A stretch of DNA of 64,000 bases, taken from an uncultured Bacilli bacterium. Lineage in GTDB: Bacteria > Bacillota_I > Bacilli_A > RF39 > UBA660. The stretch lies in assembly GCA_944331895.1 (NCBI GenBank), contig CALVIX010000003.1, forward strand, positions 74,953 through 138,952, read 5' to 3'. Numbering within the stretch: the stretch's first letter is position 1; each line of letters opens with the position of its first letter. Below, one piece after another: positions 1,711 through 21,977 of this stretch. A program made the translations under genes and the position numbers. The notes under the pieces are model-generated. The model searched no databases. It saw only the letters and a list, made by a program, of their open reading frames with translations, and was not told the DNA's origin.

Positions 1711-1797
1711 AAATCAATCTCTCCCTATTCTTAACATCTTAATTTTATCAAAATTTTTTTCATAAAGCAACATGTTTTTGACACTAATTGACAAATT

Positions 1798-2920: not shown

Positions 2921-2939
2921 GCGATCACCACCTTTGATT

Positions 2940-3515: not shown

Positions 3516-4042
3516 TCATCCTCGTCTTCGATTGGCGCCTTAATCTCGATAATCACACGGTATAGTTCATATAAGAACAATAGTAAAGTTGGTAAAATAA
3601 CTAAAATGAGAAATCCAAAACGAGATTCTAATATAGATAGGATTTGTCCAAGTTCTGGATAAACCTTCGCAGATTCCGTTCTTCCAATTAAACTAGAACT
3701 TGAAATGTCATGATTATCGTTAATCGTAAATGTACGTTCATCTTCATCTACTGGCAACACCTCTGTTACAGTTCCATAATGAATACTTGGTATTCCATTC
3801 GTTACCTCGTAGAAGAAAATCTCGTCGTTTTCTTTTACTTTTTCCATTTCTCCTTGGCGAAATAATACTAAATCACCATCGTTATATTTATCAGAATCAT
3901 CATCGATGATAATAAAACTATAGCCTAACATCTCTGTTACTTTATAATCATTGTAGCAAAGTAAACATGATGTGACTAAAATAATCACTGCCAAATAACA
4001 TACTCCGATGACTCCTAATATTCCTTTTAAAACTAATTTCAT
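3512..4042 (-). CDS. SipW-like pseudo-peptidase (nucleophile Ser replaced)
   Basis: 176 aa with the same N-TM / beta core / C-TM layout as SipW. NDGDLVLF aligns with NTGSLILV of SipW, which puts IIIDDDSDKY where GSMxP should be (Ser to Asp). Acidic C-terminal tail. Confidence 0.5.
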   Translation of the reverse strand: MKLVLKGILGVIGVCYLAVIILVTSCLLCYNDYKVTEMLGYSFIIIDDDSDKYNDGDLVLFRQGEMEKVKENDEIFFYEVTNGIPSIHYGTVTEVLPVDEDERTFTINDNHDISSSSLIGRTESAKVYPELGQILSILESRFGFLILVILPTLLLFLYELYRVIIEIKAPIEDEDE

Positions 4043-4086
4043 ATCCCTACTCCTTCATGTTTCTATTTTATCACAAAAACAATTCA

Positions 4087-5634
4087 TTACCTAGCGATTT
4101 CTTTTTTTTCCATGATTTTCTGAACTTTCTTTACTCTTATTAAATCATCGATAGATATATGAAGTTTTTGTAGTTGATAATATATAATTATCTTTTTTAA
4201 ATCTGTCTTACACTGTTTTAACTGTTCTGTTGCTAACATATCTTCTTTTAGATCAACGCCTAGTAATCGATAGTTAGAAATCAACATAGAAGCGACATTT
4301 CCTTCTTCCGATATCGTCAAATTATTGATCATTGTATTGTTCGGATTTAAAACGAATTGATAAAGATTTTGATGTTCTTCATCTACTTTTTCATATGTCG
4401 TTTGTGGATCTTTTTCAAAACACATATCAGCTAAGAATGCATAATATTGACTCACGAGCAATAATGATTTAAAAATCGTTGAATTGTCTTTCATGTGCTC
4501 TTTGACAGTATAGTGAAACATCACCTGATCCACTTCGTGATATTGTGCTTCTATCTCGCTGATCACCTGATTGATTTCTGGTGTGATTTTGTCTACTTTT
4601 GTCTTAGAAAAAGTCCCCCGAGATTTTTTATTTAATTTTGTTAACTTCTTTTCTAATTCTTTGATCTTCTTAAAATGTTTTTGCAATACATTACGGTCTA
4701 AATCTTCTTTGTATAACGATCTGATTTTGGCAATCAACGCTTCATATTTCTGATAATTTTCGTATTCTTCTAACGAGTGTAATAATTTGAAAGCAACATT
4801 TTCTAACTCGGATTCTTTTCCTTCAAAAGAGTTTCCAAAATACGTATTTATTAAATTTTTAATTTTTTCTTCCGTATAATCATCTACATTATAAGCTCCT
4901 GACACAAAACAATATAATAGATGTTCCTTCTTCCCAAGCTTTTCCATCTCTAACTTATGACATAGATAACTATAGTCATCGATCAAACTTTTTTCTCCAT
5001 GTTGAAAACGCGATAACATCTCTGCATTCGTACGAGTGATGTATTGTTCGAATTTCTTCTTGTGTTTTAAATATAGATGGCGAAGATTCAATTCAATTTC
5101 TAAAATTAAATATGGATCTTTCCAATAGAGTTCTTCAAATACTTTTTCTAACGTTCCACTATTGATATAGTTTTGATAGGAAAAGAAGGATTCCATATAT
5201 TGGTGTGAGAACTTCGTATAGTTAAAATCGGATGCCTGCAAAGATATCCCTACTTTGTTAAATACAGATATCACTCTTTTTAAAACGTGATTATTATCGT
5301 TTAAACGATTCATCTTATAGCGTGAAAGTTGATACATATTTTTATCTAGTCTTAATTTTTCATACGCCGTTGCTAAATTATTCGTATAGGATAATGCTTT
5401 AGAAAGTTGCATCAGCGCATCATGGTATTCTTGAAAAGACTGTGGCTGTAAAGATAAATATGGTTTTTCACGGTTCACAAGTTCCGTATAAATCATATTT
5501 ACCTTTTCTTGATAAGTTGCAATTTCACGCTCTATTTCATTTAAAAACTTCGTTTGGTTTTTTAAATTGTTCGTCGGTAAACTTTGAAATACTTCACGGC
5601 TTAATGCGATTTCTTTTTCAATTCTTTCCTTCAT
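4087..5634 (-). CDS. Cytoplasmic K/E/L-rich helical protein, unknown function
   Basis: 515-aa ORF with no hydrophobic span and no motif I recognise. Its start is overlapped by the small ORF 5618-5746. Confidence 0.6.
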   Translation of the reverse strand: MKERIEKEIALSREVFQSLPTNNLKNQTKFLNEIEREIATYQEKVNMIYTELVNREKPYLSLQPQSFQEYHDALMQLSKALSYTNNLATAYEKLRLDKNMYQLSRYKMNRLNDNNHVLKRVISVFNKVGISLQASDFNYTKFSHQYMESFFSYQNYINSGTLEKVFEELYWKDPYLILEIELNLRHLYLKHKKKFEQYITRTNAEMLSRFQHGEKSLIDDYSYLCHKLEMEKLGKKEHLLYCFVSGAYNVDDYTEEKIKNLINTYFGNSFEGKESELENVAFKLLHSLEEYENYQKYEALIAKIRSLYKEDLDRNVLQKHFKKIKELEKKLTKLNKKSRGTFSKTKVDKITPEINQVISEIEAQYHEVDQVMFHYTVKEHMKDNSTIFKSLLLVSQYYAFLADMCFEKDPQTTYEKVDEEHQNLYQFVLNPNNTMINNLTISEEGNVASMLISNYRLLGVDLKEDMLATEQLKQCKTDLKKIIIYYQLQKLHISIDDLIRVKKVQKIMEKKEIAR

Positions 5635-5756: not shown

Positions 5757-8700
5757 CTATTTTATTATAACATATTCTGTACAATCTCCTATCAAAGTAT
5801 CTCCGTCGTATAATCGAAATACAAACCGATATGTACCACTTTTTAAATTTGATTTTAAATATAAATTCTTATCGCTTTCCGCAGCCGGCATTTCTGAAAG
5901 TAAATATTCATTTTCATTTTTCTGCTGCATATTGTTTGAAACATAATCTAACAAGTTGACTTGAGAGTATGTCGTATCGTAAATCTCATCGTAATTTCTT
6001 CTAAACAAGCTAACGCGTATATTTGGATTAGATAAATTAGAAGAGTACTTTACGTGGAAAATAAGGGCGTTATTTCCTAGTGTCGTATACCCTGTTTCTT
6101 TATCTACGATCGTCTGTCTCTCATCTAAAGAAACGTCTAATCCATAACGACTATTGATAATCTCAAATGGAATTGTAATCTGATCCGATGAATTCGTTCC
6201 AAAATAGATCCCATCTGGCGAACCAAACGATTCGATTTTCATCGTGTAATTTCCACTAGCCAAGTTAACGTTATTCGTATGAATTTTAATACGACTCAAT
6301 ACATTGGCAACCTTATCTGCAAGTGGAATACGAATACTTCCATCCATACGTGGATAATAAGTAACTCCATCCAACTCGTAAGTAAGTCCAAGTAAGCTAC
6401 TATTGTTCAATTGATTTTGATTCGCATCAAAGATCGTAATGTAAACACCAAGACGCTTATCTAGATATGTCGTATCTACAACAGTTGCTCCACTTGCCGT
6501 CGATTGAGTGAAGTTCGTCGTCAATGTCAAATCGCTATCTTCACCGATATAAATTGGATTTTTACTTAAAGTTCCTTCGACATCGATCACTGCGTCTCGA
6601 TTATCATATAAGTTATAAGTTAGGTTCGCATGTTGAATTCCGAGAACGCTAATCAAAGTTTGATCTTGCGCGTTTCGAAGTTCCATGAGTAAACTCTTTC
6701 CAATCTGATCCCCTTCGATCGTGGTATCTCCAAAATCGACGATAAAGATAAATTCTTCTTCGATAATTCCCATCTCTTCGTCATAGTAAAGTTCCATATT
6801 TTTTTGTTCGTTATAATTATTGTCTGCACTCGTCGATCCCATGGCAATAAAATCACTTAAATAATAAGAACTTTCTCCATATAACGCATGTTCTGCTGTT
6901 GCATTTCGATAATCTTCTTCATCGATGACATGATAATAGTATGTTGGCATCGTCGCAAAGTCGATCATCGTTATCTTTGTTCCAACTGGCAATACGTAAC
7001 TAGATACAAGTGCATGCTGATATCCCGTTTGATAATATGGTTTATCTGTTTCCATATAAAGAGAATAATAAGCACTCAAGGATGATTTCGTTGTAATGTT
7101 CGTCTGTGTCGATGCGAATAAATCGTATTTTTCCCCTGTCGTCATCGCACCTTCATATTCGTTATTTGCATATAATGCAGAATTGATCGTTACGTTGATA
7201 TTGACACGAGTTACCTCGTTATTTAATTCATCGATCGGTGTTATCTCCAAAAGGGAAATGACAACGGTACCAATTTCTCTTGCCTGTGTTAAATTTTTAG
7301 AATGGTACAAATAGAAGATGAAACTAGGTACAGCACTTGAATTCTCCGATTGATAATTGGTTGTCCCAACGACGGAAGATCCTTCTTCGGTTCTAAAGTT
7401 TGTAGATCCTTTCGTAACGAAACCTGTATTAGATGCCTCCATCGAAAGCCCCATGATGTCATCTGCTTTTCCATCTCGATTGACTCTTTCAATCGTATCT
7501 GGATCGACAAGTTCAAACCCTTCTTCGAGATTCTGATAGTTAAATCCTAAAATCTCAAACTGCGTATTCGCTCCACCAGATGTTACTAAAGGTAACTCGT
7601 ACGTACCTAACGTCGCATACTTAGATGCCGTTAAAGTAAGTTCGTACGTTTCAACGGTCTCTCCAATTACCCACATATAATAACTAGCATCGCTCGGTGT
7701 AGGTTCAATATACTTCACTTCTACTGTTCCTTCGACATCTTCATTTTCATAGTTACTATAAAAACCATCTTTCGTAATATCGTGATTTGTATTGTGTAAT
7801 CCTAAGACGTAGCTTCCTGATGTGAATGCATAGAACTCTCCAGAAGCAACAGTATCCCCTGCATCGTATTTTTGATGGTAAAATGCAGTTAATACGCGAT
7901 CGTTACGATCTAATTGATACATTCCAAAGAACGTCATTCCACTCACTTCTCCATAGCTCGTGACGGCTTCGTTTGTCGCGATATTCATGTTTTTGCCTTC
8001 TAACATATAAACGCGATTATCGACATTTTTCGTGACACTTCCGCCTTCAGTAATCGTAACACTTGCCTCAGTCTCATTCTCTCCATCGATCTTTAAACTA
8101 TTAAATTTTTGTAATAAGTTCGTTCCGTTATCTAAAAATAGAGTACTATTATTTGCTAACTTTAATTCCTTGACACGACTAATACTAAATTTTGTCGTCG
8201 AAAATTCATTCGTACGGTCTGTCGTTCCTTCTAATTTAATTGCAGAATTTTTAAGAGTTACAATATCTGCTCTTTGAATAGAAATATTTTCCTGGTACTG
8301 ATCAAAAGTACCATAATTTGAAATATCGATATAACTATAACCTTCTGTACTAGATGCGTTTCCAGAACCAAAGATAGAACCTTTGATATAAAATTGATCA
8401 TATCCATCTCCATCGATTGTAATTTGGATTCCTTCTGTTACACTGATAAAAGAATAGTCGTAGTTTGGATCTCCTTCGGCATTGGCTTCTCCTCCTCCAA
8501 AGACAGTTCCATCGATCATGATATCGCTCTTCGTTAAATTTTCATTCGATCCGATATTTAATTCTACCGTTCCATAAAGTACGGCTGTATTGGCTCCCCC
8601 ATATACATTTCCATGGATCGCAGCTCCAGCTATATTGACGTGACTGACAGAACGATTGACTTCCTTCGTTCCCGTATTTGCGGCGTTTCCTCCACCAAAA

Positions 8701-11700
8701 ACATGTTGATCCACTATCGTATTTTGATCTACGTTGAGTGTCGTCGAACCATGGACGATTGCACTTTGTCCATTGCCACCAGCGTAGATACTACTTTGGA
8801 TATGAGAATTTGAAATGTTTACCTCGGTATCTCCCGATACAATTCCAAGATTTCCTCCACCAAACAAATCTCCAGCGATCGATGAATTTTTAAAAACTAC
8901 TTTCGTATCATAATTAACGGCAGCTTGATTTCCTCCACCGAAGAATTCTCCGTTCATCGTAATAGAGTCTACTTGAACATTGGTCTGATCTGTCGGTGCC
9001 ATATTTCCGCCACCATATAAATTGGTATAACTTCCTCCATTTAACGTAACATTAGCGTCTTTGGTAACACCACCTTGATTATTTCCACCATATACATTTC
9101 CGACAGTCAAATTAGATGGATTTTCAGCTTTCACATTTGAAGTTTCTACTGTTCCTGCTTGATTACTTCCACCAAATGCATAAGTAGCTTGTCCGGATTT
9201 CAAATCGACGTTCGTCGTCGTAACACCAGCTTGGTTTCCACCACCATAAATACTTCCGACGGTAGATCCAGATAGAGTCAGATTCGATGTCGTCGTAGAA
9301 GTTTTATTTCCTCCGCCATAGGCGTTCGTAATCGTTCCTCCGCTTAATAATATATTCGTCGTCGCAGTAATTCCACCTTGGTTATTTCCACCATATACGT
9401 TCGTTAAATTACCACCCGTAATACGAATATCTGACTGTGGAACATTTCCTAGGATGTTAGAACCACCATATAATTCTCCAATCGTCGCATTTTCTACCAT
9501 AATCAAGGTAGATTGTGACATGTTCGCTTGTTCTCCGCCACCGTAGACGGTATCTACTGTTCCATTTTTGATCGTAAGTGTACTTGTATTGCTATCGGTT
9601 AGTTTTCCACCACCATACATCGTACCAACGGTACCACCAGTCATTGTAATATTCGTCGTAGTCGTTTTCCCACCGACATTATTTCCACCATATATGTTGG
9701 TTGCCGATCCTCCTGAAATAGTAATCTGGGCATTTTCAACATCGCCACTTTGATTACTTCCACCAAATAAATTCGTAACCTGACTACCATTTTGAAAAAC
9801 ATTTGTCTCCGATACTAAAGTGTTATTTCCACCACCGTAGGCATTTGTAATCGTTCCTCCGTTTAAGGTAACAACAACACTTCCGTTTGGCTCTCCTTTA
9901 GCGTCATTCCCGCCAAATAGATTGGTGATCACTCCTCCTGTCGTCGTAACAGAGACATCTCCTGCTACATATGGTGTAATCGTCTGATTTCCCTTTCCAC
10001 CACCAAATACTTGATTGATAGTTCCTGCATTGACGATAACACTCGTAGAATATGCACTTTGTGTCGTCGTTTTCTGTCCCGAATTGACTACACCAAAGGC
10101 ACTTCCTCCGTAAACTGAACCTGTTACGTTTAAATTTCTCGTACGAGCTGTACCTACAGTCATATCGATATTTTGAGTTACGTAAGTATCTTCTCCAAGT
10201 CCACCACCATAGGCGTCTTTTAAAGATCCATTTACAAGAGTAACTGCACTACTTCCATAAACTGTTCCTTCCTGATTACTTCCACCATAGATAGAATCTA
10301 ATACGGATCCTCCATCCATCGTAATCTCGATCGTGGATGTAACTCTTCCACTTCTTCCAGAACCACTGTGGTTTCCACTTCCAAAAACGGATCCATTTAC
10401 AGTCCCACCGACTAATTGGATGGATGTTGTAGAACTATTAGAAGCACTATAACCAACTGTACCATAGTTCCCACTACCATATACGTTCTTCTTTACGACT
10501 GCTTGATCGGCAATCACAATGTTAGAATGATTTACCGAACCGATGGTTGCATATCTTGAATTTCCGTTTCCACTTCCAAAGACAGAACCAGCTTCAGATC
10601 CCCATATCGTAGAACCATTATTGATATATGTATCATTTCCTATGGTTGCGGTTCCACCAATATAAACATAAGAGTCCCCCGTAAGCGTTCCATCACTACT
10701 ACTACCATCATATCCATTACTTCCCCCAAAGATACTATAATTTACAGTACCTCCAGTAACTTGCAAAATACGATTTCCATATGTAGTTGAAGTTCCTGCT
10801 CCACCAGTGATCGTATCCGCTTCTCCACCTGTCATATAAATATAGGTATCGTTCGTAGACCCCTTCGAACTTGCTGTCAACGGACCCCCGATAAGATTTG
10901 CGATATACCCGCCTTCTATTTTAGCAAGACGTGGTGCATAATGTGTCCCACCTTGACGACCACCTACATAAATACCAGAAGTATGATCGATATCGTGCGT
11001 TCCAAAACGTCCGCTTTTTACAATCGTATTCAGTGCAGGTGTCAGATCGTTATTCGACGAGTAAATTCGTCCTCCCCAACTACCAGATGCACAAAAGTAA
11101 ACAAGTAAGTTATCGTTATTGACAGTAACCCTATCATAATCATTTCCATATACTCCATACGTTTCTGTATATAACTGCGTCCCACTCGTTCCAGTCGATG
11201 ATCCCATCGTTAAAGATACAGAATTATAATCACCAGATTCTATTACAAGTTCATATCGTTCCGGATTGGAAGATGACCCAAAGGTTCCTCCACCCCAAAA
11301 ACTGTCGGAGTTTCTCCCACCTAAAATAGATGTAAAGTTAACATAATTTCCATTTTGTTTAATATTTCTTCCAAATTTTACGTTAAAATAATTACCATAA
11401 AACGTAGCGCTCGCACTATTTCTACTGGAAGGATCTACTTCCCTATGAGAAGTGGTTGTCGAAATAGTCATATTTTCTATTCTAAGATCCGAATAAGCTG
11501 TGACGCTTAAATTGTTAACATTCCATGTTGGATTATAATCAATACTATTATGTATACCAGTCAGCGTAAAAGGTTTCGTGCTTGATTCACTCCATCCCCT
11601 CGACATATTTCCATTCATAACTAAAATGTTCGTATCGCGCGTCGTCAGGTAGTAATAATCTGCGTCTGGATCGAGCTTTTCTTCTGTCCCGTCTGCTTTA

Positions 11701-12863
11701 TAGAATTGAATTAGTTCATATACGTTACAACCATTTCGATTTCCACAATTACCGCTTTCGATCTCTCCTGCCTCACTATAATATCCAGTAATTGATTGTC
11801 CATAACCTACATGGCTTTGTCTATAATATCCCGACATATTACTCTCTGCATTAAATAGATCACTTTCTTCAGTACCAATAATTGTCGGTTGCAAATTTGC
11901 CTCGATGAAACCTCTTCCACTTCGTTCATAATAGGTTGTACCCATTTCATACTCATCATTTTCGTCCTGTAAAAAATAAACGTTACAAGTGTTCGTTTTC
12001 GTCCCTGTTTCTAAAAAGCCAAAAGATGGTGCCGGGCATTGATAAGAACTATGATAATTGGCACTATCATCGTAGCAATCTGTACATGATCCATATTCGA
12101 CATCCGTTCCACCAAAAAGACTTTTCGTCGCTGTCGTCGTAATCGTACTTCCTTTATAATATCCAGCTACTTCTGGATATTCATAAATGTAATTGATCGT
12201 ACTAATTTGATTCATTCCCTTTGATTTCAACTGCGACTGTGCACTATCGATCGTTACTCCACTATTTACATACGCAACCGTTGCATTTGTCCAAGAAGCA
12301 TACATGTGAATTTCAATTTCACCTGCATTTCCAACTGGAACACTTACGTACCTTTTATAATAAGTATCATCATACGAAATCTCGGCACCTTGATAGTTGG
12401 TCATCCATCCATTGAATGCTAGATCGTTGGGGTGATCAGCAAATGGATTATCGATCAACTCTATCTCGATGGCACCGTTTTTCTTCGGATAATATTTATA
12501 GTAGACAAAAGTGTTTTGCCTTTCTGTAAGAGAGACATATCCCGTATGTTGTCCATCGTAGCTAGTACCATGATAGACAACTGTCGTCTTTACTAAATTA
12601 TTATCACCATACAAGTTTTTGTTTGCGAGTGTCGGTAAAGCTCCATCACTACTATATGTATAATTCTGACCCAAATAATAATAATAATCACTATCGGAAT
12701 CATCTATGTAAACTGTATTGCCAACAATCCCACGTGAAACTGTTGCTTTTGGATTTGCTGTTTTCCACGCTCCGTAGGAAAAGGCAATCGTCGTAATAGG
12801 GATAATACACGCTAAAAGAATCAAGAAATATACTTGACGATTCTTCTTGAACTTTTTTCTCAT
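5757..12863 (-). CDS. Giant secreted beta-solenoid protein (2368 aa) with a SipW-cognate-like N-terminus
   Basis: N-terminus MRKKFKKNRQ plus one hydrophobic span, then AFSYGAWKTANPKATV. Aa ~40-490 is a Tyr/Cys-containing region. Aa ~490-1510 is Gly/Asn/Thr-rich with at least 24 [YF]GG[GSN]N units at ~25-aa spacing. Aa ~1520-2368 is beta-rich. No LPXTG or other C-terminal anchor. Confidence 0.75.
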   Translation of the reverse strand: MRKKFKKNRQVYFLILLACIIPITTIAFSYGAWKTANPKATVSRGIVGNTVYIDDSDSDYYYYLGQNYTYSSDGALPTLANKNLYGDNNLVKTTVVYHGTSYDGQHTGYVSLTERQNTFVYYKYYPKKNGAIEIELIDNPFADHPNDLAFNGWMTNYQGAEISYDDTYYKRYVSVPVGNAGEIEIHMYASWTNATVAYVNSGVTIDSAQSQLKSKGMNQISTINYIYEYPEVAGYYKGSTITTTATKSLFGGTDVEYGSCTDCYDDSANYHSSYQCPAPSFGFLETGTKTNTCNVYFLQDENDEYEMGTTYYERSGRGFIEANLQPTIIGTEESDLFNAESNMSGYYRQSHVGYGQSITGYYSEAGEIESGNCGNRNGCNVYELIQFYKADGTEEKLDPDADYYYLTTRDTNILVMNGNMSRGWSESSTKPFTLTGIHNSIDYNPTWNVNNLSVTAYSDLRIENMTISTTTSHREVDPSSRNSASATFYGNYFNVKFGRNIKQNGNYVNFTSILGGRNSDSFWGGGTFGSSSNPERYELVIESGDYNSVSLTMGSSTGTSGTQLYTETYGVYGNDYDRVTVNNDNLLVYFCASGSWGGRIYSSNNDLTPALNTIVKSGRFGTHDIDHTSGIYVGGRQGGTHYAPRLAKIEGGYIANLIGGPLTASSKGSTNDTYIYMTGGEADTITGGAGTSTTYGNRILQVTGGTVNYSIFGGSNGYDGSSSDGTLTGDSYVYIGGTATIGNDTYINNGSTIWGSEAGSVFGSGNGNSRYATIGSVNHSNIVIADQAVVKKNVYGSGNYGTVGYSASNSSTTSIQLVGGTVNGSVFGSGNHSGSGRSGRVTSTIEITMDGGSVLDSIYGGSNQEGTVYGSSAVTLVNGSLKDAYGGGLGEDTYVTQNIDMTVGTARTRNLNVTGSVYGGSAFGVVNSGQKTTTQSAYSTSVIVNAGTINQVFGGGKGNQTITPYVAGDVSVTTTGGVITNLFGGNDAKGEPNGSVVVTLNGGTITNAYGGGNNTLVSETNVFQNGSQVTNLFGGSNQSGDVENAQITISGGSATNIYGGNNVGGKTTTTNITMTGGTVGTMYGGGKLTDSNTSTLTIKNGTVDTVYGGGEQANMSQSTLIMVENATIGELYGGSNILGNVPQSDIRITGGNLTNVYGGNNQGGITATTNILLSGGTITNAYGGGNKTSTTTSNLTLSGSTVGSIYGGGNQAGVTTTNVDLKSGQATYAFGGSNQAGTVETSNVKAENPSNLTVGNVYGGNNQGGVTKDANVTLNGGSYTNLYGGGNMAPTDQTNVQVDSITMNGEFFGGGNQAAVNYDTKVVFKNSSIAGDLFGGGNLGIVSGDTEVNISNSHIQSSIYAGGNGQSAIVHGSTTLNVDQNTIVDQHVFGGGNAANTGTKEVNRSVSHVNIAGAAIHGNVYGGANTAVLYGTVELNIGSNENLTKSDIMIDGTVFGGGEANAEGDPNYDYSFISVTEGIQITIDGDGYDQFYIKGSIFGSGNASSTEGYSYIDISNYGTFDQYQENISIQRADIVTLKNSAIKLEGTTDRTNEFSTTKFSISRVKELKLANNSTLFLDNGTNLLQKFNSLKIDGENETEASVTITEGGSVTKNVDNRVYMLEGKNMNIATNEAVTSYGEVSGMTFFGMYQLDRNDRVLTAFYHQKYDAGDTVASGEFYAFTSGSYVLGLHNTNHDITKDGFYSNYENEDVEGTVEVKYIEPTPSDASYYMWVIGETVETYELTLTASKYATLGTYELPLVTSGGANTQFEILGFNYQNLEEGFELVDPDTIERVNRDGKADDIMGLSMEASNTGFVTKGSTNFRTEEGSSVVGTTNYQSENSSAVPSFIFYLYHSKNLTQAREIGTVVISLLEITPIDELNNEVTRVNINVTINSALYANNEYEGAMTTGEKYDLFASTQTNITTKSSLSAYYSLYMETDKPYYQTGYQHALVSSYVLPVGTKITMIDFATMPTYYYHVIDEEDYRNATAEHALYGESSYYLSDFIAMGSTSADNNYNEQKNMELYYDEEMGIIEEEFIFIVDFGDTTIEGDQIGKSLLMELRNAQDQTLISVLGIQHANLTYNLYDNRDAVIDVEGTLSKNPIYIGEDSDLTLTTNFTQSTASGATVVDTTYLDKRLGVYITIFDANQNQLNNSSLLGLTYELDGVTYYPRMDGSIRIPLADKVANVLSRIKIHTNNVNLASGNYTMKIESFGSPDGIYFGTNSSDQITIPFEIINSRYGLDVSLDERQTIVDKETGYTTLGNNALIFHVKYSSNLSNPNIRVSLFRRNYDEIYDTTYSQVNLLDYVSNNMQQKNENEYLLSEMPAAESDKNLYLKSNLKSGTYRFVFRLYDGDTLIGDCTEYVIIK
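8469..10301 (-). repeat. Coding tandem repeats (~75 nt / ~25 aa) of the beta-solenoid core
   Basis: Repeated xVYGGGNxxGxVxxTNVTLxGGTVxN pattern (IYGGSN, AYGGGN, LFGGSN, IYGGNN, MYGGGK, VYGGGE ...). Degenerate at the DNA level. Confidence 0.6.
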
Positions 12864-12880
12864 ATGATCCCTCCTTTTCT

Positions 12881-14567: not shown

Positions 14568-14595
14568 ACCACCACGATCCTTTATTATTACTTTA

Positions 14596-15143: not shown

Positions 15144-15734
15144 TTGATTAAAGTGAAAAAATGGAAATTATTGATCGCTATTTGTGCTTTGATCTTTTGC
15201 GTCACACAAATACAACAAACTTATGCGAAATATCTAGATACGAAAGAAGGCGATACAGATTTTACCATTGCTCAATGGAAAATCCTCGTCAACGATCAAG
15301 ATATTACAGAAGCTGCAACAATGTCTTCTCTAGTTAACCCAGTATATCTCGAAAACGAGCATGTAAAAGACGGAGTCATCGCTCCTGGACAAAATGGATA
15401 TTTTGATCTGACGATCGATTCAAGCAAGACGGAAGTATCCTTTTCCTATGCGATTCAAATCGCGACATCCGATCAAAGTTCTGTCTCTGATCTTGCAATT
15501 ACTGGATATCAAGTGAACGATAGTGGTCTCGTATCTGTCGATCAAGCAGTCAATACAATTCAAAATAATATATATTACAATGATCCGACCAAAGAAAATA
15601 AAATTCGCGTATACTTCCAGTGGAAAGATGGTGTAGGAGAAACGATGGATAACGCTGCCGATACCAACGCATCGTTAAGTGGAGAGAGCGCTAAACTGAA
15701 AGTTAATATTACGTTTACACAAATTGCAAATTAA
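15144..15734 (+). CDS. Secreted TasA/camelysin-like protein, family C (paralogue of 2940-3515); one of only two plus-strand genes called
   Basis: 196 aa with a TTG start in the track. Signal-like N-terminus ending IQQTYAKYLDT. IAQWKILVNDQDI, APGQNGYFDLTIDSSKTEVSFSYAI, VYFQWKDG. Confidence 0.55.
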   Translation: MIKVKKWKLLIAICALIFCVTQIQQTYAKYLDTKEGDTDFTIAQWKILVNDQDITEAATMSSLVNPVYLENEHVKDGVIAPGQNGYFDLTIDSSKTEVSFSYAIQIATSDQSSVSDLAITGYQVNDSGLVSVDQAVNTIQNNIYYNDPTKENKIRVYFQWKDGVGETMDNAADTNASLSGESAKLKVNITFTQIAN

Positions 15735-15762
15735 AACCACAGTTAATTCTGTGGTCTTTTTT
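15733..15762. terminator. Bidirectional terminator between convergent ORFs
   Basis: ACCACAG-ttaatt-CTGTGGT is followed by CTTTTTT on plus. The reverse orientation is followed by TTTTAATTT. It overlaps the last codons of the 204-aa ORF. Confidence 0.6.
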
Positions 15763-16345
15763 GACTTGCTGTCAATTTAACGATAATTTCAATTTGTTTT
15801 TCTCCTGGATAGTCTTGCTTATAACTATAGCTCTTTTTTCCCCAATAAGTATCTAATTCATCATTTCCGGACTCATACGGCCAATCTAACCCTACTCGAA
15901 AGCTCGCTTTCGCACCGATATCAATTTCCGATTGATCGACTCCCAGAGTTAATTTAAAAGGATAGTTATTCTGTAACATTTCAATTAACTCATCACTTGT
16001 ATAATCCGCATCCGTATATACTTCATCCATAATCTTGATCGATTTTACTTCGTATGTAATATAAGCCAACATCTCTCCAGAATTGCTAATTTCGATAAAT
16101 TCCTCGAAAGATTCCATTCCCGGATAGATCGAATCAATCTCGAAAGTAACATCTTCCTCTAGATCATTTCCATCTTGTTCAAATGTTACCTTCCATGATT
16201 TTACCCCAGTAGTGATACTGTTGGATACTTTATTGCTATAGATAAACCATGCAAAAGAATTTGCCATAAAAGCAAAAATTAGAAAAAATAATGTACTTCT
16301 ACGTATTCTTCGTTTCGTCTTTTTCATGAGTGTTTTCTTCTTCAT
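15743..16345 (-). CDS. Secreted TasA/camelysin-like protein with SipW-cognate-type signal
   Basis: MKKKTLMKKTKRRIRR, one span, then ANSFAWFIYSNKV. IYPGMESFEEFIEISNSGEMLAYITYEV resembles the TasA LKPGD...NNGSL segment. Start uncertain: GTG 16357, ATG 16345 or ATG 16327. Confidence 0.55.
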   Translation of the reverse strand: MKKKTLMKKTKRRIRRSTLFFLIFAFMANSFAWFIYSNKVSNSITTGVKSWKVTFEQDGNDLEEDVTFEIDSIYPGMESFEEFIEISNSGEMLAYITYEVKSIKIMDEVYTDADYTSDELIEMLQNNYPFKLTLGVDQSEIDIGAKASFRVGLDWPYESGNDELDTYWGKKSYSYKQDYPGEKQIEIIVKLTASQKRPQN

Positions 16346-16907
16346 CGGACAACTCACTTTCTTTCTCTTTGATATAATCGAGTATTTCTAAGAAAATTAA
16401 AATTGCAATCGGAACAAACACAAGAAAATATAATCCGTAGGAATTATTTAAAATATGACTTAACCAACTTAATACTTGCGGTCTATAAACGACAACTCCA
16501 TACATTTGATCTTCTCGAATTTCCGGATCAGGTGTATTATTTGCTGTTCCTTGCGTCGTATAATAATAAGTTCCATTCTCTTCTCTTACTTTCTTTACTC
16601 TATGCGTAATGACCCTATCTTTATAATCTCCTGTTTTGCCAAGATAAGTTAAATCATCTCCCACCTGAATTTCATCTGGTTTTTTTTCTTTGATGATAAT
16701 CACATCGTAAATATCGTATTCTGGCATCATACTACCTGTTACAACTGTAAACATGCGATAACTACCAATACTGACTTGATTGTTGAATAATCTTTGAATT
16801 CCAATAACTAATACGATCAAAATCACAAAAATCCAAATCATCACTTTTATAAACCCAAACAGAAACTTAAGAAAAGGATTATTCAGTATTTTTTTCATCA
16901 TCTTCAT
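16299..16907 (-). CDS. sipW: Signal peptidase I, SipW type (Ser and His boxes present; GDNN box reads GTANN)
   Basis: 202 aa with VVTGSMMPEYDIYDVIIIK, GDDLTY, ITHRV, TTQGTANNTPD, a C-terminal span and an acidic tail. Its start overlaps the stop of the upstream 379-aa ORF. Confidence 0.7.
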   Translation of the reverse strand: MKMMKKILNNPFLKFLFGFIKVMIWIFVILIVLVIGIQRLFNNQVSIGSYRMFTVVTGSMMPEYDIYDVIIIKEKKPDEIQVGDDLTYLGKTGDYKDRVITHRVKKVREENGTYYYTTQGTANNTPDPEIREDQMYGVVVYRPQVLSWLSHILNNSYGLYFLVFVPIAILIFLEILDYIKEKESELSDEEENTHEKDETKNT

Positions 16908-18018
16908 TTTTTTTCACCTTCAAATGATCTGTCTTATCGATGTATTCACTCATCGCTTTTTTGTAGATCTTTTCAATTTCACTCGTATCTACAACCTTTT
17001 TATATTTTACTTTTACATATTCTTTTCCAATCAACTTCATCACTTCATCTAAAGATAGTTGATCACTGATATTCATAAGTTGATTGATAGACTGACTTAC
17101 GACACGAGCCTGTAAATTTTCTTTTTCTTCCTCTGTTACCTCTTTTTTATGTAAGGTATCCATGATCAAGCAATTTAACAAAAATGATTCATCCATCATA
17201 TCTTTCAACTTACCTTGATCTTTATAATCTTTATTCGAATGATCCTTTTTTACACTAGGTTCCATATGTGTTTGAAGATAATTCCATAAAGTTAAGGCAT
17301 ATTGGAAATTAACATTTTTCAAAATCAAATTTGTCTTTTTAATCGGAGATGTTACCATAGCTACGTGTAATTTAGCAATACTACGGTATACTTCTGAAGA
17401 ACATAGATCACGAATCTGTTCTTCTACTTTCGTAATTCTTTCAGCAAGTGTTCCTTTATCTCCCTTTTTTTGATCGCTTTCAATCTTACCCGTCAGATGA
17501 ACAGAGATCTCCACCCTTTCATTGTCGATCTTTCCCTTTCCCTGATATTTCAATTCTTTGAGCGAAGAAAAAGATTGCTCGACAAGTTCTTCTTGTTTTT
17601 TTCTCTCGATATACATCTTCATATGATTGATCAACGTATAGATAAAACGATTTTCATAGGTATTAAATGTCTCTTCTTTATTGATATTTAATATTTTAGA
17701 TGGTTTTACTTCCCCAGTCTTAGGATCGATTTCTTGAATCAAATTCGTATTCTTTGACAAATGTTTAATACTATCCACAGTAATTCGACGTGCCAACTCA
17801 ATTTTTACGATCTCTTCTTCGTTGATGATAAAACGATTAGGACTGCGCAAAATATTATCTAAATATCGGATTGTCTCTTCCATTTTTACGAGCCATTCGT
17901 CGTCGTACTCGGATTGATCCATTTTATCTTTCACCTGTAACTCGGAACTTAACGACTGTTTGAATTTCTCTTTCGTCCGATCCGTCGTTTTTCCGTAAAG
18001 TTCTATAATTCCATCCAT
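16879..18018 (-). CDS. Cytoplasmic partner of the McrB-like GTPase (McrC position; no nuclease motif seen)
   Basis: 379 aa starting 13 nt after the GTPase stop. The TYENRFIYTLINHM segment and overall N-terminal region recall the McrC/DUF2357 N-domain (from memory, weak). The C-terminal half is K/E-rich and helical. Confidence 0.45.
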   Translation of the reverse strand: MDGIIELYGKTTDRTKEKFKQSLSSELQVKDKMDQSEYDDEWLVKMEETIRYLDNILRSPNRFIINEEEIVKIELARRITVDSIKHLSKNTNLIQEIDPKTGEVKPSKILNINKEETFNTYENRFIYTLINHMKMYIERKKQEELVEQSFSSLKELKYQGKGKIDNERVEISVHLTGKIESDQKKGDKGTLAERITKVEEQIRDLCSSEVYRSIAKLHVAMVTSPIKKTNLILKNVNFQYALTLWNYLQTHMEPSVKKDHSNKDYKDQGKLKDMMDESFLLNCLIMDTLHKKEVTEEEKENLQARVVSQSINQLMNISDQLSLDEVMKLIGKEYVKVKYKKVVDTSEIEKIYKKAMSEYIDKTDHLKVKKNEDDEKNTE

Positions 18019-18031
18019 ACTCTCACCTACA

Positions 18032-19555
18032 CTATGTTAATTTTTTCAATCTTAATAAGTACTCTTCACACTCTTTCATTTTCCCTTGACCAAACGTCTG
18101 GTCTAAAAATTCGATAAACCCGTCGATTTCATCGCGAATGTAAGATACGTTTAACTGTTCAAACTTACGAAGGATTTTACGTGCCACAAAGTAATCTACT
18201 CCACTGACTTCATCTCCACCACAAGCAATATAAACCGGAACAAATTTTCTCATATGTGCGACAATACGGTTACCAAACGCAATACGGAAATGTTTGATTA
18301 CATAGTTATCCATCTCTTCTATTTTATTTAAAATGTCCGCACTCATTTCGTTTTGATTCATAGCTTCCGCAAAGATACGCTCTAAATAAGAATAATTGAT
18401 ATCCTGTGATGGGGTATCGATCGGTTCGAACACCTCACCTTTGTCATTGATGTCAATTGGCATCGCACGGTCATATACTTTATCTGTTACCATGAAAGTA
18501 GAGTCGTCATTATTGATCGTTCCGATATACCAAGTATTTGGACTAATCTTTAATTTCCCGTCGATCAATTTTTTAGGATCGTTCGGCCAACTACTAGAAA
18601 CTAGTTCGACAATCCATTCATCTTTGTTTGGCATTTCCAAAATAGATAACATCTCTGCAAAGTAATACTCTACTCTGGCGATGTTCATCTCATCTAGAAT
18701 CACGGTATATACATCGTCCGTATATCCAGCTTCATAGATCGTCTTTAACACTTCTGTCTCATTAAACTTCTTCGTAAATTCGTTAAAGTATCCAAATAAT
18801 TCAGTACGATCACGCCATGATGGCTGAACAGATGCGATACAAGAATCATGCTTTAAAAATTTTCCCCAAGCATATGCTAGAGATGTTTTTCCGGTACCAG
18901 AAATACCTTGTAAAATAATGAGCTTCGTAGACGCTAAAGCAGCGATAAAAATACGAATCATCTCTGACTTATAATAAAGATGTAATTGACTTGCTGCAAA
19001 ATTTCGAAACAACTCCACTAGTTCTTCCAAAGTAAACGTATTGTTGTAATTCTTTTTTGTATAGCTTTGATATGCGAGATCCACTTCGTTTAACTTAGCA
19101 AATCTAATTCCATCTGCATTTACATTCTCCTCTTCTGGATCAGTTGGTTCTTCTACTTCACTCTCATTCGGTTTCAACCCTAAATGCGATACCTTCATTG
19201 CCAAAATATCTTCTTTTTCTTTGACTAAACTAGATACCTCGTCATTTAATTTTGCAACTTCCTCCAAAAGCTCTTCTTGTTCTACTAAGGTCTTGCGAAA
19301 GCGAATATACTTTCGAACCAAGAAAACGATCAAGAATACAAATGCCACTACAATCAAGATTAAAAAGACAATGACAAGAGCGACAAAGATCCATTCCGGA
19401 CCATTAAAATCTTCTTTGTAGAAATTTAAAATACGTAGATAAGCTTTGAAATCGAACATGTGCTTAATTCCCTCGATCGCAGCGAGCGCTATTTGTAATA
19501 AACTACCAAAAAACTGGCTTAAAAATTCATATAAAAATCGAAATACTGTATCCAT
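18032..19555 (-). CDS. Membrane-tethered McrB-family AAA+ GTPase
   Basis: TM span at aa 55-80, coiled-coil at aa ~88-120, Walker A GISGTGKTS (nt 18884-18907), VQPSWRDRTELFGYF, VILDEMNIARVEYYFAEMLSILE, IGTINNDDSTFMVTDKVYDRAMPI (NxxD at the McrB NTAD position). Confidence 0.75.
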   Translation of the reverse strand: MDTVFRFLYEFLSQFFGSLLQIALAAIEGIKHMFDFKAYLRILNFYKEDFNGPEWIFVALVIVFLILIVVAFVFLIVFLVRKYIRFRKTLVEQEELLEEVAKLNDEVSSLVKEKEDILAMKVSHLGLKPNESEVEEPTDPEEENVNADGIRFAKLNEVDLAYQSYTKKNYNNTFTLEELVELFRNFAASQLHLYYKSEMIRIFIAALASTKLIILQGISGTGKTSLAYAWGKFLKHDSCIASVQPSWRDRTELFGYFNEFTKKFNETEVLKTIYEAGYTDDVYTVILDEMNIARVEYYFAEMLSILEMPNKDEWIVELVSSSWPNDPKKLIDGKLKISPNTWYIGTINNDDSTFMVTDKVYDRAMPIDINDKGEVFEPIDTPSQDINYSYLERIFAEAMNQNEMSADILNKIEEMDNYVIKHFRIAFGNRIVAHMRKFVPVYIACGGDEVSGVDYFVARKILRKFEQLNVSYIRDEIDGFIEFLDQTFGQGKMKECEEYLLRLKKLT

Positions 19556-19565
19556 TCATTCACCT

Positions 19566-20546
19566 CTATTTTGGAATATATAACACTTGAAAATAATCTT
19601 TTAAAGTATCATATAATTTTTCATCATCTGTAATAATATATGTAAATACACGAAGTAAAACATAAGCTTCTTCGTTCCATACAAAGTGGTCATCTAGACA
19701 AATAGCAATATGAAATCCTTCCCTCGTCAAGCGATAGACTTCCTCTTTGTTCTCTAGATACTCTGTATAAGAAATTTTAAATGCTAGTTTTTCTTTGGTA
19801 ATATCATTATCGATTATATTTAAGAGTCTCTTTTGTTTCTTCGGTTTATCCTTTAATGCTAGAATATAATCCACTAAATAATATTTTTGATATATTCCCT
19901 TGATAATATCTTGTAAAATTTTAACACCGACGTAAGAATATAATATAAATAACTTTTGTTCTTCGATATCTTTATTGTGGAATACCTTTTGAATCGCATA
20001 CTCACTATATAACTTTGAAAATTTTAAATTATGTTCTAATTCACAATCAAAGATTCGATCGTTATTTACCTTAATATAGTTAATGCTAAAGTTTTTATCT
20101 TTAAATTTATCTATAAATTCTTGTTTTGCAAGCAAATCATCTTTTAGCTGATTATAAAACTTCACCTCGAACTCGTCGTCTTGAAGTCCCAATTCATTCT
20201 CTCGAAACTTTGCTACTTTCGCGATAATAGCGCGTACAGAATCACACTCACAAACGCCATCAAAATACAAAATATATTGAAACATCGAAAACATGTACTT
20301 TGCTTTTTTCCGATATTTTGAATCATCTTTGACATTTTCAAGTGACTTTTTTAAATAGTAGACCAAGTTCTTTTCAAATCTTTGATCTACCATTGGATAC
20401 ATATGATAATATCTCGTATTGATATATGCATTGATCAAATCATCATAGATATCCTGATCGAAATAATGTCCCAGAATCATCTGCAAATATTTCTTGATTG
20501 CCTTTTGCGAAAACGAAACATATTCTTTTACAATATTACAGCTCAC
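19566..20546 (-). CDS. Cytoplasmic protein, unknown function (326 aa)
   Basis: Long ORF tightly packed in the operon (10-11 nt gaps on both sides) with no hydrophobic span. Confidence 0.55.
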   Translation of the reverse strand: MSCNIVKEYVSFSQKAIKKYLQMILGHYFDQDIYDDLINAYINTRYYHMYPMVDQRFEKNLVYYLKKSLENVKDDSKYRKKAKYMFSMFQYILYFDGVCECDSVRAIIAKVAKFRENELGLQDDEFEVKFYNQLKDDLLAKQEFIDKFKDKNFSINYIKVNNDRIFDCELEHNLKFSKLYSEYAIQKVFHNKDIEEQKLFILYSYVGVKILQDIIKGIYQKYYLVDYILALKDKPKKQKRLLNIIDNDITKEKLAFKISYTEYLENKEEVYRLTREGFHIAICLDDHFVWNEEAYVLLRVFTYIITDDEKLYDTLKDYFQVLYIPK

Positions 20547-20557
20547 AATACCAACTC

Positions 20558-21487
20558 CTAGTAATTATATTCGACCGTTACAATTCCACTACCACTTCCA
20601 TCGTTCGAATAATCTTTTGTTACATCCTTTTTATAAAATCTCATCACACTACTACTCGATGCGGGCATATCAAACGTAAATTGATTGATATAATCATACC
20701 CATTTATCTTTTCTGTTTGAATGTTATATCCCCGTAAAAATGTCGTACTATTATTATCTACATATACGATATTTGGATCGAAGGATAATGTGATGCTTGC
20801 AGAAACACATTTATTCTTCTCCTCTTGCGTCAACGCATTATATTGCGCGATCGACAATTGATCGCCTACTGCATGCGTTCCAAATGCTTCCTGGACTGTA
20901 TAATATAATAGTGTATTTGTCACCTTCACCTCAAGATAAACATCGTTTTCATGATCGATAATCTCATGACTTAATCCATACGTACCTACCACTAATTTAA
21001 ACTGTGCCGACAATTTTTTATGATAAGGACTTACAGATTCTGCGACAATTTCCGCAACGACACTATCTCCATCCTGAAACGTCTGTGTCGGAGTAATCGT
21101 AACGATAAATTGATCATTATTACTGTCGTGATAGATCGTTCCTTTTTCTTTTGTCGTATTACAGATTACTGTTTCAGAACAATTGAGAGAAACCTCATAA
21201 TCGATGTCACTATTACTCTTCAAATGATTATTTTTAAAACTATTCAAGTTGATGACAATATTATATGGATCCACTCCGTTCCAATAATCAAGTGAATAAC
21301 TCGCACCATCTTGCGTTAACTTGTCACTTTCAAAATAAAAGTTCTGCGTACGAAAATAGAAATTCAACACTTGATGATAAACAAACCGTCCCAACGTAAA
21401 TCCGACTGTCATAAATGCAAAAATTGCAACTACTAATACAACTCCACGCTGAAACTTATTAAGACGTCGTACTCTAATTTTTGGCAT
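20558..21487 (-). CDS. Membrane-anchored or secreted protein, family B (309 aa)
   Basis: Basic n-region RVRRLNKFQR, one span, then FTLGRFVYHQ. The N-domain is paralogous to 1798-2364. Confidence 0.55.
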   Translation of the reverse strand: MPKIRVRRLNKFQRGVVLVVAIFAFMTVGFTLGRFVYHQVLNFYFRTQNFYFESDKLTQDGASYSLDYWNGVDPYNIVINLNSFKNNHLKSNSDIDYEVSLNCSETVICNTTKEKGTIYHDSNNDQFIVTITPTQTFQDGDSVVAEIVAESVSPYHKKLSAQFKLVVGTYGLSHEIIDHENDVYLEVKVTNTLLYYTVQEAFGTHAVGDQLSIAQYNALTQEEKNKCVSASITLSFDPNIVYVDNNSTTFLRGYNIQTEKINGYDYINQFTFDMPASSSSVMRFYKKDVTKDYSNDGSGSGIVTVEYNY

Positions 21488-21977
21488 AACTTAACGACTT
21501 TCTATATTTTCGTACCAGTATAATAAAAGCGATCATAATTGGTAACATCACAATTAGAAAATATCCTAATTGACTTGTCAAAACCCGATACGGATACCCT
21601 AACATCGGAATTTGTCGCACATCTTTTATATTTCCTATCAAATATTCGCTCGACAAAAATAAGCCATCTTGAATCACGTAAGTATACTCTTTCTCGTTTG
21701 TCTTCATGACGTCTTCTACTTTTGTTACGTCGATCTTTCTTTTTCCGTTTTTCGTATTGTAATAGATAATTTCATCCCCTTTTTGGATCGATGATATATC
21801 CTTCTTACTCACGATTAAATTACCTGCTTTCAACTCTTCCGAATTTTCAGTTATCCCAACGATCATCGTATCCCCAATGACGCTATCCGAAAATTGATTA
21901 CAGGTAAACAAGAAAAAAGTTGCTACTAGTACTAATACTGTGTAACATATGATTCCAATATACTTTGCGATTCTCAT
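21474..21977 (-). CDS. SipW-like pseudo-peptidase (Ser and His boxes both lost)
   Basis: 167 aa with N-TM and C-TM as in SipW. KAGNLIVSKK aligns with NTGSLILVK, which puts ITENSEEL where GSMEPEF should be. VTKVEDV replaces THR. Confidence 0.5.
   Translation of the reverse strand: MRIAKYIGIICYTVLVLVATFFLFTCNQFSDSVIGDTMIVGITENSEELKAGNLIVSKKDISSIQKGDEIIYYNTKNGKRKIDVTKVEDVMKTNEKEYTYVIQDGLFLSSEYLIGNIKDVRQIPMLGYPYRVLTSQLGYFLIVMLPIMIAFIILVRKYRKSLSYAKN

Follow-up and report, generated by a model that had tools for sequence, protein, structure and literature searches.

The 64,000-nucleotide window analysed here, a stretch of contig CALVIX010000003.1 from an uncultured Bacilli bacterium, contains a surface-protein locus of ~21 kb (21977 to ~685). 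Within it lie, on the minus strand, the genes for a GTPase related to Escherichia coli McrB (18032..19555), for a partner in the position of McrC (16879..18018) and for a SipW-type signal peptidase (16299..16907). An earlier reading made from the DNA letters alone (hereafter the sequence-only reading) had placed the first two open reading frames (ORFs) at these coordinates and on this strand, and both are there. Homologues number >8000 for the GTPase and ~3900 for the partner, so that both genes stand far above chance.

The GTPase gene, identified as an ORF with PDB and PADLOC matches and invariant motifs, encodes 507 amino acids (aa). From its N-terminus the protein consists of helices (aa 2-49), a transmembrane (TM) helix (aa 54-80, encoded by 19316..19396 on the minus strand), a juxtamembrane coiled coil (aa 81-121, 19193..19315, same strand), an acidic linker (residues 126-150, with 9 Asp or Glu) and an AAA+ core (~190-507). 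The predicted TM helix, E54-V80, has a mean Kyte-Doolittle value of 3.27 with a best 19-residue window of 3.76, and a hydrophobic segment occupies the same position in all close orthologues and in relatives with one TM helix. It is followed by RKYIRFRK, which brings 5 Lys/Arg in 10 residues; since this stretch flanks the TM helix on its C-terminal side, the positive-inside rule would place the GTPase domain in the cytoplasm. The coiled coil is predicted from a helix in the AlphaFold2 (AF2) model and from a conserved heptad-like pattern, which over 80 species reads KY.RFRK..VEQE..L.E...LN..V..L..EK..ILAMKV. In the AF2 model, residues 54-121 form a single continuous helix after helices 2-33 and 36-49; the model is weak (pLDDT score 63.2, core <50), and Foldseek returned no match in the PDB at E<0.001. 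The first 53 residues (19397-19555) carry conserved motifs, M.T...F.YE.L.QFF and YK.DF...EW, which are sequence-specific and go beyond mere hydrophobicity, and the helix corresponding to aa 2-33 is clearly a membrane span in relatives with two TM helices. No DNA-binding family was matched where a modified-DNA-binding N-domain might have been expected, the N-terminus being made up of helices, TM segment and coiled coil. The sequence-only reading had proposed that a membrane anchor replaces the DNA-reading domain, and the hydropathy of E54-V80 agrees with membrane insertion of the N-terminal region. Sub-threshold matches to FtsL models were also obtained (NF053549, E 0.0036, 17 bits against a cut-off of 55; TIGR02209, E 0.041).

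The catalytic motifs of the core are Walker A GISGTGKTS (217-225), Walker B ILDEMN together with EYYFAE, and the sensor-1 block GTINNDDST (345-353), all of them invariant or nearly so in 80 orthologues and in 150 distant representatives. These representatives are the 150 best of an exhaustive search that gave 8147 matches (754 at <1e-30), and every one carries the signature GT[AI]N-x-D-[DE]-ST, with N348, D350, S352 and T353 invariant. R363 aligns with the RRR stretch of McrB and is likewise invariant or nearly so in distant relatives. The signature is that of the NxD clade, the shortened N-x-D-(D/E), and differs from the NxxD that is canonical for E. coli McrB. The sequence-only reading was thus right to assign the protein to the McrB branch, with the motifs of an NxD-clade GTPase intact, but mistaken in taking the block for a canonical NxxD. 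A shortened NxD followed by D/E defines the CoCoNuT/CoCoPALM branch of McrB GTPases (PMC11090510). When the single sequence was searched against the PDB, E. coli McrB was the sole significant match (E 0.003); a profile built from 37 divergent relatives matched McrB at E 2.3e-6, its only other match being a non-significant designed binder (E 0.09). Pfam AAA_5 is matched by 25 of these 37 relatives, and identity within the core is 0.9-0.99 over 80 species. The protein is, in sum, an AAA+ GTPase of the McrB type and the NxD clade; its catalytic motifs are intact, and a TM helix and a short coiled coil stand before the GTPase domain.

The partner, a 379-residue protein encoded immediately downstream on the minus strand, consists of a DUF2357 domain (aa 26-148) followed by hairpin and helical parts. 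The domain is matched by Pfam PF09823 at E 5.8e-12 (45.8 bits against a cut-off of 23.3), and the partner homologues listed all carry PF09823 only. As the sequence-only reading had claimed, no PD-(D/E)xK nuclease can be recognised: Pfam gave no nuclease family at E<=0.1, the invariant residues include no conserved D...(D/E)xK, and the PDB gave neither a sequence match nor a fold match (Foldseek, E<0.001). An AF2 model, again weak (pLDDT 65.8), shows helices and hairpins with an all-helical C-terminal third and without a long coiled coil. Nine larger partners of relatives (494-991 aa) likewise contain DUF2357 only and no nuclease domain. At the level of sequence, the absence of a nuclease fold from the partner is therefore well supported, and the locus does not resemble a type IV restriction context. 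At 379 aa the partner is unusually short compared with the 500-990 aa of most relatives, whose partners (e.g., that of locus L163) have charged coiled coils of 200-400 residues.

The peptidase that follows, SipW202 (202 aa, minus strand), belongs to the SipW (archaeal/ER) type of signal peptidase I, as judged from its TIGR02228 match (E 9.4e-22, 77.6 bits against a cut-off of 51.85), its N- and C-terminal TM helices and its motifs. SipW202 retains the catalytic motifs, namely Ser (GSMMP), His (THR) and DP, and its 77 orthologues conserve them, as would be expected of an active-type peptidase, which SipW202 is predicted to be. It is not an orthologue of Bacillus subtilis SipW, since it scores 60.5 against a cut-off of 190 with the Bacillus SipW equivalog model. 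The gene junctions are tight. Exactly 13 nt, containing an AGGTGA ribosome-binding site, separate the TAG stop of the GTPase from the ATG of the partner, and the SipW202 ATG, with its own AAGGTGA site, lies 29 nt upstream of the partner stop; the sequence-only reading had reported both the 13-nt gap and the overlap with an active-type SipW. A spacer of 10 nt with a ribosome-binding site precedes the GTPase gene, and the tight spacing is conserved across species. The GTPase/partner pair thus lies among, and is translationally coupled with, genes for SipW-type peptidases and for secreted proteins that have SipW-type N-termini.

We examined conservation in two sets of loci. In species-representative genomes, 250 relatives of the GTPase were found, all of them in uncultured Bacilli, 'Tenericutes' or CAG-type metagenome-assembled genomes (MAGs), including two contigs of ~1.256 Mb, one of which is recorded as a chromosome; the 80 genome loci that we fetched are a subset of these. 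The second set comprises 80 diverse metagenome loci from a scan seeded with a distant GTPase relative, in which the GTPases have only 40-61% identity to that of the window. In the genome loci the partner is found in all 80 and SipW in 78. Across them the GTPase is conserved better than any other cassette gene, with 70-95% identity versus 26-75% for its neighbours. Counting only loci with at least 3 kb of upstream and at least 6 kb of downstream flank, a SipW-like gene lies downstream of the GTPase in 48/48 genome and 30/30 metagenome loci, and a McrC-like gene directly follows the GTPase in 48/48 and 29/30, respectively; the pair thus keeps its place beside SipW in relatives. The common order in the metagenome loci is one or more g332-like genes, a g236-like gene (both secreted families are described below), SipW, GTPase, McrC-like gene (500-990 aa) and SipW. 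Adjacency to rpoBC, which we considered as a further conserved feature, is found only in the closest relative (L001) and was ruled out. On this pattern, GTPase and partner appear to be chromosomal, vertically inherited and under purifying selection.

The strongest new evidence for physical coupling to SipW comes from two natural fusions. The first joins the McrC-like protein to the peptidase. In metagenome locus L163, a continuous 989-aa ORF (11610-14579) comprises DUF2357, a charged coiled coil of ~400 residues, a TM helix and a SipW domain. Its McrC-like domain (aa 38-329) matches our partner hidden Markov model (HMM) at E 2e-53 as well as Pfam DUF2357, and its SipW domain (aa 762-943, E 2.5e-28; Pfam Peptidase_S26) has intact GSMEP and THR motifs; there is no separate SipW gene downstream. 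The same architecture, with PF09823 and PF10502 and full-length alignment over ~970-1040 aa, recurs in at least 120 clusters, including proteins of the cultured species Ruminococcus albus and R. flavefaciens and of Oscillospiraceae, so that an assembly error in L163 can be dismissed. NCBI records label these fusions simply 'signal peptidase I'. What looked like a partner-SipW fusion in L031 proved to be an artefact of ORF extension, the two ORFs being separate. The second fusion involves g326, a cytoplasmic 326-residue protein that is encoded directly upstream of the GTPase in the window (19566..20546, minus strand) and is found in 77/80 genome loci. In L123 (5071-6987) and L166 (8030-9994), a SipW-like N-domain is fused to a g326-like C-domain in proteins of 639-655 aa (E 1e-37 to 1e-40), and because of these fusions the g326 of the window looks like the split-off cytoplasmic tail of a SipW paralogue. 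Each of g326, the partner and the GTPase, the last through its own TM helix, is thus tied to the membrane or to SipW in some lineage.

Systems of this kind have been named before. Bell, Koonin and co-workers (eLife 2024) introduced the name CoCoPALM and announced the analysis for a later paper, their description being one paragraph without functional analysis (PMC11090510). They describe the CoCoPALM N-terminal module as homologous to FtsB and the McrC homologue as usually having a coiled coil (PMC11090510). The sequence-only reading, which knew of no described example, had overlooked this system. Among the papers searched, we found the name only in Bell et al. and the preprint, with no follow-up, and neither the supplementary text searched nor the bioRxiv text gives further detail on CoCoPALM. 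Like CoCoPALM, the window has an NxD GTPase with a TM helix and coiled coil, an adjacent DUF2357 protein and signal-peptidase genes, and its pair very probably belongs there. Unlike in most CoCoPALM relatives, the partner is short and has no long coiled coil, and unlike in the published description, the upstream peptidase is degenerate and two genes, g309 and g326, separate it from the GTPase. The window system is thus of a named but functionally uncharacterised kind and not categorically new; what is new here is the synteny, the McrC-SipW and SipW-g326 fusions, the nuclease-less partners, the association with EAL genes and the absence from mobile DNA, the last two of which are described below.

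With E. coli McrBC (PDB 6HZ4, 6UT6, 7VSR) the window GTPase shares the Walker A and B motifs, the sensor-1 Asn and the Arg finger, and its DUF2357 partner is likewise encoded immediately downstream. It differs in having NxD instead of NxxD and a TM helix with a coiled coil instead of the DNA-reading N-domain, and the window lacks a PD-(D/E)xK nuclease and a defence-island context and shows a core-gene-like conservation. As E. coli McrBC is established to translocate DNA, one may ask whether a McrB-like ring moves DNA or RNA at the base of a fibre, either taking it up or exporting it; for CoCoNuT relatives RNA binding is predicted (PMC11090510), and competence fibres with cytoplasmic NTPases take up DNA, although this is an analogy only. 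With Pfam and NCBIfam, neither the GTPase nor the partner nor g326 shows a domain that would bind DNA or RNA, a TM helix has taken the place of the N-terminal reader domain, Pfam finds neither a channel protein nor a ComEC-like gene in the locus, and the associated partners are peptidases instead of nucleases or helicases. A nucleic-acid translocase is therefore highly improbable.

The CoCoNuT systems (CnuB/CnuC) belong to the same NxD GTPase branch and also fuse a coiled coil to the GTPase. Their McrC homologues are often without an active nuclease, and the systems are predicted to be defensive and RNA-binding (PMC11090510). Soluble relatives with long coiled coils match the window GTPase at E 1e-60 to 1e-80. 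Unlike the window GTPase, however, the CoCoNuT proteins are soluble, have coiled coils of hundreds of residues, always come with HEPN or another nuclease and are found on mobile DNA, whereas the window form is TM-anchored and SipW-linked, has a coiled coil of only ~40 residues and no nuclease. Within the wider NxD GTPase family, the SipW link is specific to the window-type clade. Relatives with two TM helices (L081, L171) form tandems of GTPase, McrC-like gene and GTPase beside genes for leucine-rich repeat (LRR), transglutaminase and giant surface proteins, without a SipW in the vicinity. Those with four TM helices (L086, L173, L174; 550-840 aa) lie in unrelated metabolic neighbourhoods, with a partner of 520-660 aa that is not recognised by the McrC HMM. 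The soluble relatives (700-870 aa) are CoCoNuT-like.

We also searched collections of mobile DNA, namely 2.9 M viral contigs (IMG/VR), 50,697 phage records (INPHARED) and a plasmid set. IMG/VR gave 3 weak matches and INPHARED 2 matches to the core only, of which the one that we examined is a soluble, CoCoNuT-like form; no plasmid match covered the TM and coiled-coil part of the GTPase. Mobile DNA is thus essentially free of the TM-anchored form, and a phage-borne origin of the cassette was set aside. The phage-record match that we examined lies on a faecal contig recorded as 'UNVERIFIED Bacteriophage sp.' (L170; MT835511.1, 6681-11244), where a soluble NxD GTPase of 831 aa, its coiled coil ~400 residues long, and a 691-aa McrC-like partner form a CoCoNuT-type pair on putatively viral DNA. 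In a single relative, on an 8.7-kb contig (L084, 721-8267), a g326-like gene, a TM-anchored GTPase gene and a McrC-like gene directly follow genes for a phage DUF859 protein, a holin and a 251-aa protein; this GTPase is 41% identical to that of the window, with Walker A GSVGSGKTN, and the cassette may be prophage-borne or merely prophage-adjacent.

These relationships bear on the alternative that the pair is a membrane-anchored defence module, i.e., a CoCoNuT-like sensor of phages or plasmids, for example of a phage that uses the fibre as a receptor, which is merely embedded in a surface locus. Type IV restriction systems are the ancestors of the family, a defensive function is predicted for its sister clade, CoCoNuT (PMC11090510), the PADLOC candidate family PDC-M26A matches the GTPase (E 3.6e-35), and the cassette of L084 stands directly after a phage DUF859, holin and lysis cassette. 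The PADLOC match is, however, limited to the shared GTPase core (aa 191-315). No nuclease, HEPN domain or other effector was found in the partner or its neighbours with Pfam, NCBIfam and PADLOC, and PHROGs gave nothing relevant for the locus proteins. The genes occupy a fixed syntenic position in every species examined, at 70-95% identity over 250 species and in reduced genomes of ~1.26 Mb, which is the opposite of the patchy, fast-evolving distribution of defence genes. The covalent fusion to SipW and the virtual absence from phages and plasmids speak against the idea as well, and we regard a defence module as decidedly unlikely; a defence role had also been the alternative put forward by the sequence-only reading.

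Of the 80 diverse metagenome loci (L090-L169), which are of Clostridia type, 36 have genes for EAL proteins, linked to cyclic di-GMP (c-di-GMP), within the cassette or immediately next to it (e.g., L163:7635-8396), and L082 (3396-4373) and L083 also carry EAL. No EAL gene is present in the window or in the 80 loci of its lineage. The EAL gene beside the GTPase in L082 raised the idea that g326 is a degenerate EAL domain, which was ruled out, as BLASTP and hhalign detected no relationship. The EAL association recalls biofilm-type signalling, in keeping with the fibre reading given below. It would also suit a switch in place of a motor, in which the GTPase and its partner sense the nucleotide state (GTP, or c-di-GMP via EAL) and license or block SipW. 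Such a switch would also fit the tethering of the McrC-like domain to SipW in the fusions, the established point that TasA-type fibres need no energy input outside the cell, and the prediction that NxD shortening alters the rate of hydrolysis (PMC11090510). Against it, an AAA+ hexamer in which Walker B, sensor-1 and Arg finger are all fully conserved is elaborate for the purpose, the lineage of the window has no EAL gene in the locus, and the extreme conservation of the whole 320-residue core fits a working enzyme. On balance we consider the switch unlikely, although less so than a defence module.

The remaining genes of the locus encode further signal-peptidase homologues and a series of secreted proteins. 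The first gene of the cassette (21474..21977, minus strand) encodes Sip167, a degenerate signal-peptidase homologue with two TM helices that matches TIGR02228 below the cut-off (2.9e-5) and has no conserved SM or TH motif. A candidate promoter, TTTGCA-17-TACAAT with an extended TG, lies just upstream (22023-21995, minus strand); as the promoter/terminator scan was not above shuffled expectation, its outcome was discarded. Between Sip167 and g326 lies the gene for g309 (20558..21487, minus strand), a protein classed as signal-anchored and secreted on account of its N-terminal hydrophobic segment and found in 73/80 genome loci. Beyond SipW202 follow two small secreted proteins. One, g204 (15743..16357, minus strand; 76/80 genome loci), has the sequence NSFAWFIYSN with a conserved AWFIY after its signal-anchor; it gave no family match in Pfam or NCBIfam and is a candidate SipW substrate. 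The other, g196 (15144..15734; 68/80), has a QTYAKYLD motif and is the sole gene of the locus on the plus strand. In most related loci it is inverted as well, suggesting that g196 is separately regulated. A profile of the g196 family (A8) had no PDB or Pfam match.

The secreted proteins g236 (13857-14567) and g332 (12881-13879), both on the minus strand, are paralogues that share a C-terminal W(L/I)EGxDxDC motif, rich in Asp and with one Cys; their families (alignments A5 and A6) matched no known family or solved structure. As g236-like or g332-like genes adjoin the GTPase in most of the 80 metagenome loci, these are the secreted families most widely co-encoded with CoCoPALM GTPases. Next to them lies the gene for a giant secreted protein of 2368 aa (5757..12863, minus strand), which has a SipW-type N-terminus (AFSYGAWKT), Gly/Asn-rich repeats (GGxN, YGG) and no Pfam match at E<=0.001; it is found in 53/80 genome loci and is probably an adhesin or part of a tip.

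The locus continues downstream of the giant protein with a second gene set (685..5634, all minus strand), which encodes a cytoplasmic helical protein of 515 aa without a family match (4087-5634), a degenerate peptidase (3512-4042), a g196 paralogue (2940-3515), an active-type SipW with SNSMAP and THR motifs (2345-2920), a secreted protein of 188 aa (1798-2364) and a g332 paralogue (685-1710). A local HMM scan supports this gene set, and a Pfam Peptidase_S24 match (1.5e-5) also falls in it. The locus thus has two g332-type and two g196-type proteins, and four signal-peptidase homologues, of which those at 16299-16907 and 2345-2920 have catalytic motifs and those at 21474-21977 and 3512-4042 do not. 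Like Sip167, the homologue at 3512-4042 has lost the Ser and His motifs and kept the two-TM topology. In Streptococcus pyogenes, SipA, a signal-peptidase homologue without catalytic residues, is essential for pilus polymerisation (PMC4049620). Sip167 and the 3512-4042 protein recall SipA/LepA, a signal-peptidase-I homologue that also lacks the catalytic residues, which provides a precedent by analogy for a possible role as assembly chaperones. SipA works with sortases and LPxTG pilins, whereas the locus proteins contain no LPxTG sortase signals, so that any fibres made here would not be sortase pili.

After their N-terminal hydrophobic anchor, the secreted proteins show an aromatic-A-(W/K/R)-(F/Y) motif. 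The form (aromatic)-A-(W/K)-(F/Y) near the predicted cleavage site recalls the N-termini of TasA and CalY. A TasA-like substrate had been claimed by the sequence-only reading, and the searches did not bear this out: none of g204, g196, g236, g332 and g309 matched Peptidase_M73, and the three secreted-family profiles A5, A6 and A8 did not match TasA in the PDB. With Pfam, NCBIfam and the three profiles against the PDB all negative, we dropped TasA-likeness. The locus nevertheless resembles B. subtilis tapA-sipW-tasA and Clostridium perfringens sipW-bsaA in encoding a SipW-type peptidase together with secreted proteins, and differs from the TasA operons in that its secreted proteins have no detectable homology to TasA/Peptidase_M73. 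To our knowledge, no McrB-like GTPase or DUF2357 gene has been described for the tapA-sipW-tasA and sipW-bsaA operons. BsaA of C. perfringens, a TasA-family protein encoded in a sipW operon, forms membrane-anchored oligomers, and its efficient secretion needs some genes associated with type IV pili (PMC11580942). Type IV filament machines (PilB/GspE/FlaI) offer a functional analogy only: they too combine a hexameric NTPase, a dedicated peptidase and membrane-held subunits. Their NTPase is a PilT-class ATPase and not an McrB-type AAA+ GTPase, their prepilin peptidase is aspartic where SipW is a Ser/His enzyme, and the window locus has no homologue of their platform protein.

McrB hexamers hydrolyse GTP when the N-terminal domain of McrC inserts into their ring, and SipW-type peptidases process dedicated fibre subunits. 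Taking these two together with the data above, we propose that the window GTPase is an McrBC-derived enzyme at the cytoplasmic face of the membrane that takes part in SipW-dependent biogenesis of surface fibres and is not a restriction enzyme, a reading to which we give a probability of roughly 0.6. That the role lies in fibre biogenesis as opposed to defence appears likely in its own right. The sequence-only reading had already suggested that an McrBC-type motor was repurposed from restriction and linked to SipW and fibre genes, and the synteny, the fusions, the nuclease-less partners and the absence from mobile DNA all point the same way. The specific motor that we envisage is more tentative, and we would give it rather less than even odds. 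Six GTPase subunits would form a ring under the membrane, hung from their TM helices and coiled-coil stalks. The DUF2357 partner would plug this ring and stimulate GTP hydrolysis, as in E. coli McrBC, and the partner and g326 would physically bridge the ring to the SipW peptidases. Conformational cycles driven by GTP could then be passed on to SipW, where they would gate or power the cleavage of signal-anchored g204, g196, g236, g332, g309 and the giant protein, and cleaved subunits would be handed to a growing membrane-anchored fibre. More doubtful still, but possible, is that the restriction-derived GTPase ring, the nuclease-less McrC that plugs it and a mechanically linked SipW constitute a new kind of filament-assembly machine, in which GTP hydrolysis drives cleavage-coupled polymerisation of membrane-anchored surface fibres and which would be a core, near-universal organelle in a large, uncultured, small-genome gut lineage of Bacilli and also present in the cellulolytic Ruminococcus species.

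Several points weigh against this proposal. The assembly of TasA-type fibres in Bacillus is not known to need an NTPase. The secreted proteins are not demonstrably TasA-like or pilin-like, and we infer the 'fibre' from the signal motifs, the paralogy and the giant protein. The family comes from defence systems, as the PDC-M26A match to the core and the position of the L084 cassette after a phage holin cassette recall. The coiled coil of FtsB/FtsL sits outside the cell, a topology opposite to the one required here, so that either the likeness to these proteins is only architectural or helix 2-33 forms a second TM span; we place the coiled coil inside the cell because of the positive-inside rule and the need for GTP. 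As the AF2 models are weak and the fold searches were uninformative, the case for ring formation and plugging is one of homology. Moreover, a ring plugged by McrC cannot thread a polypeptide as Clp or FtsH does, and the route by which force or information would reach SipW is therefore speculative. Every step of the mechanism is, in short, one that we infer.

If the proposal is correct, the system would be a clear case of exaptation, in which a defence motor, McrBC, was turned to cell-surface biogenesis, and it would give SipW-type fibres, for which the current view is self-assembly outside the cell, their first route that depends on NTP. For annotation, these genes should not be labelled as restriction or defence, nor the fusions simply as 'signal peptidase I'. 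With the fused form occurring in two cultivable species, R. albus and R. flavefaciens, the question can now be put to experiment. In the uncultured gut lineage, which is very abundant and whose genomes measure ~1.26 Mb, the system seems to belong to the conserved core, and the retention of a ~21-kb locus at so small a genome size implies a role of some importance for living in the host.

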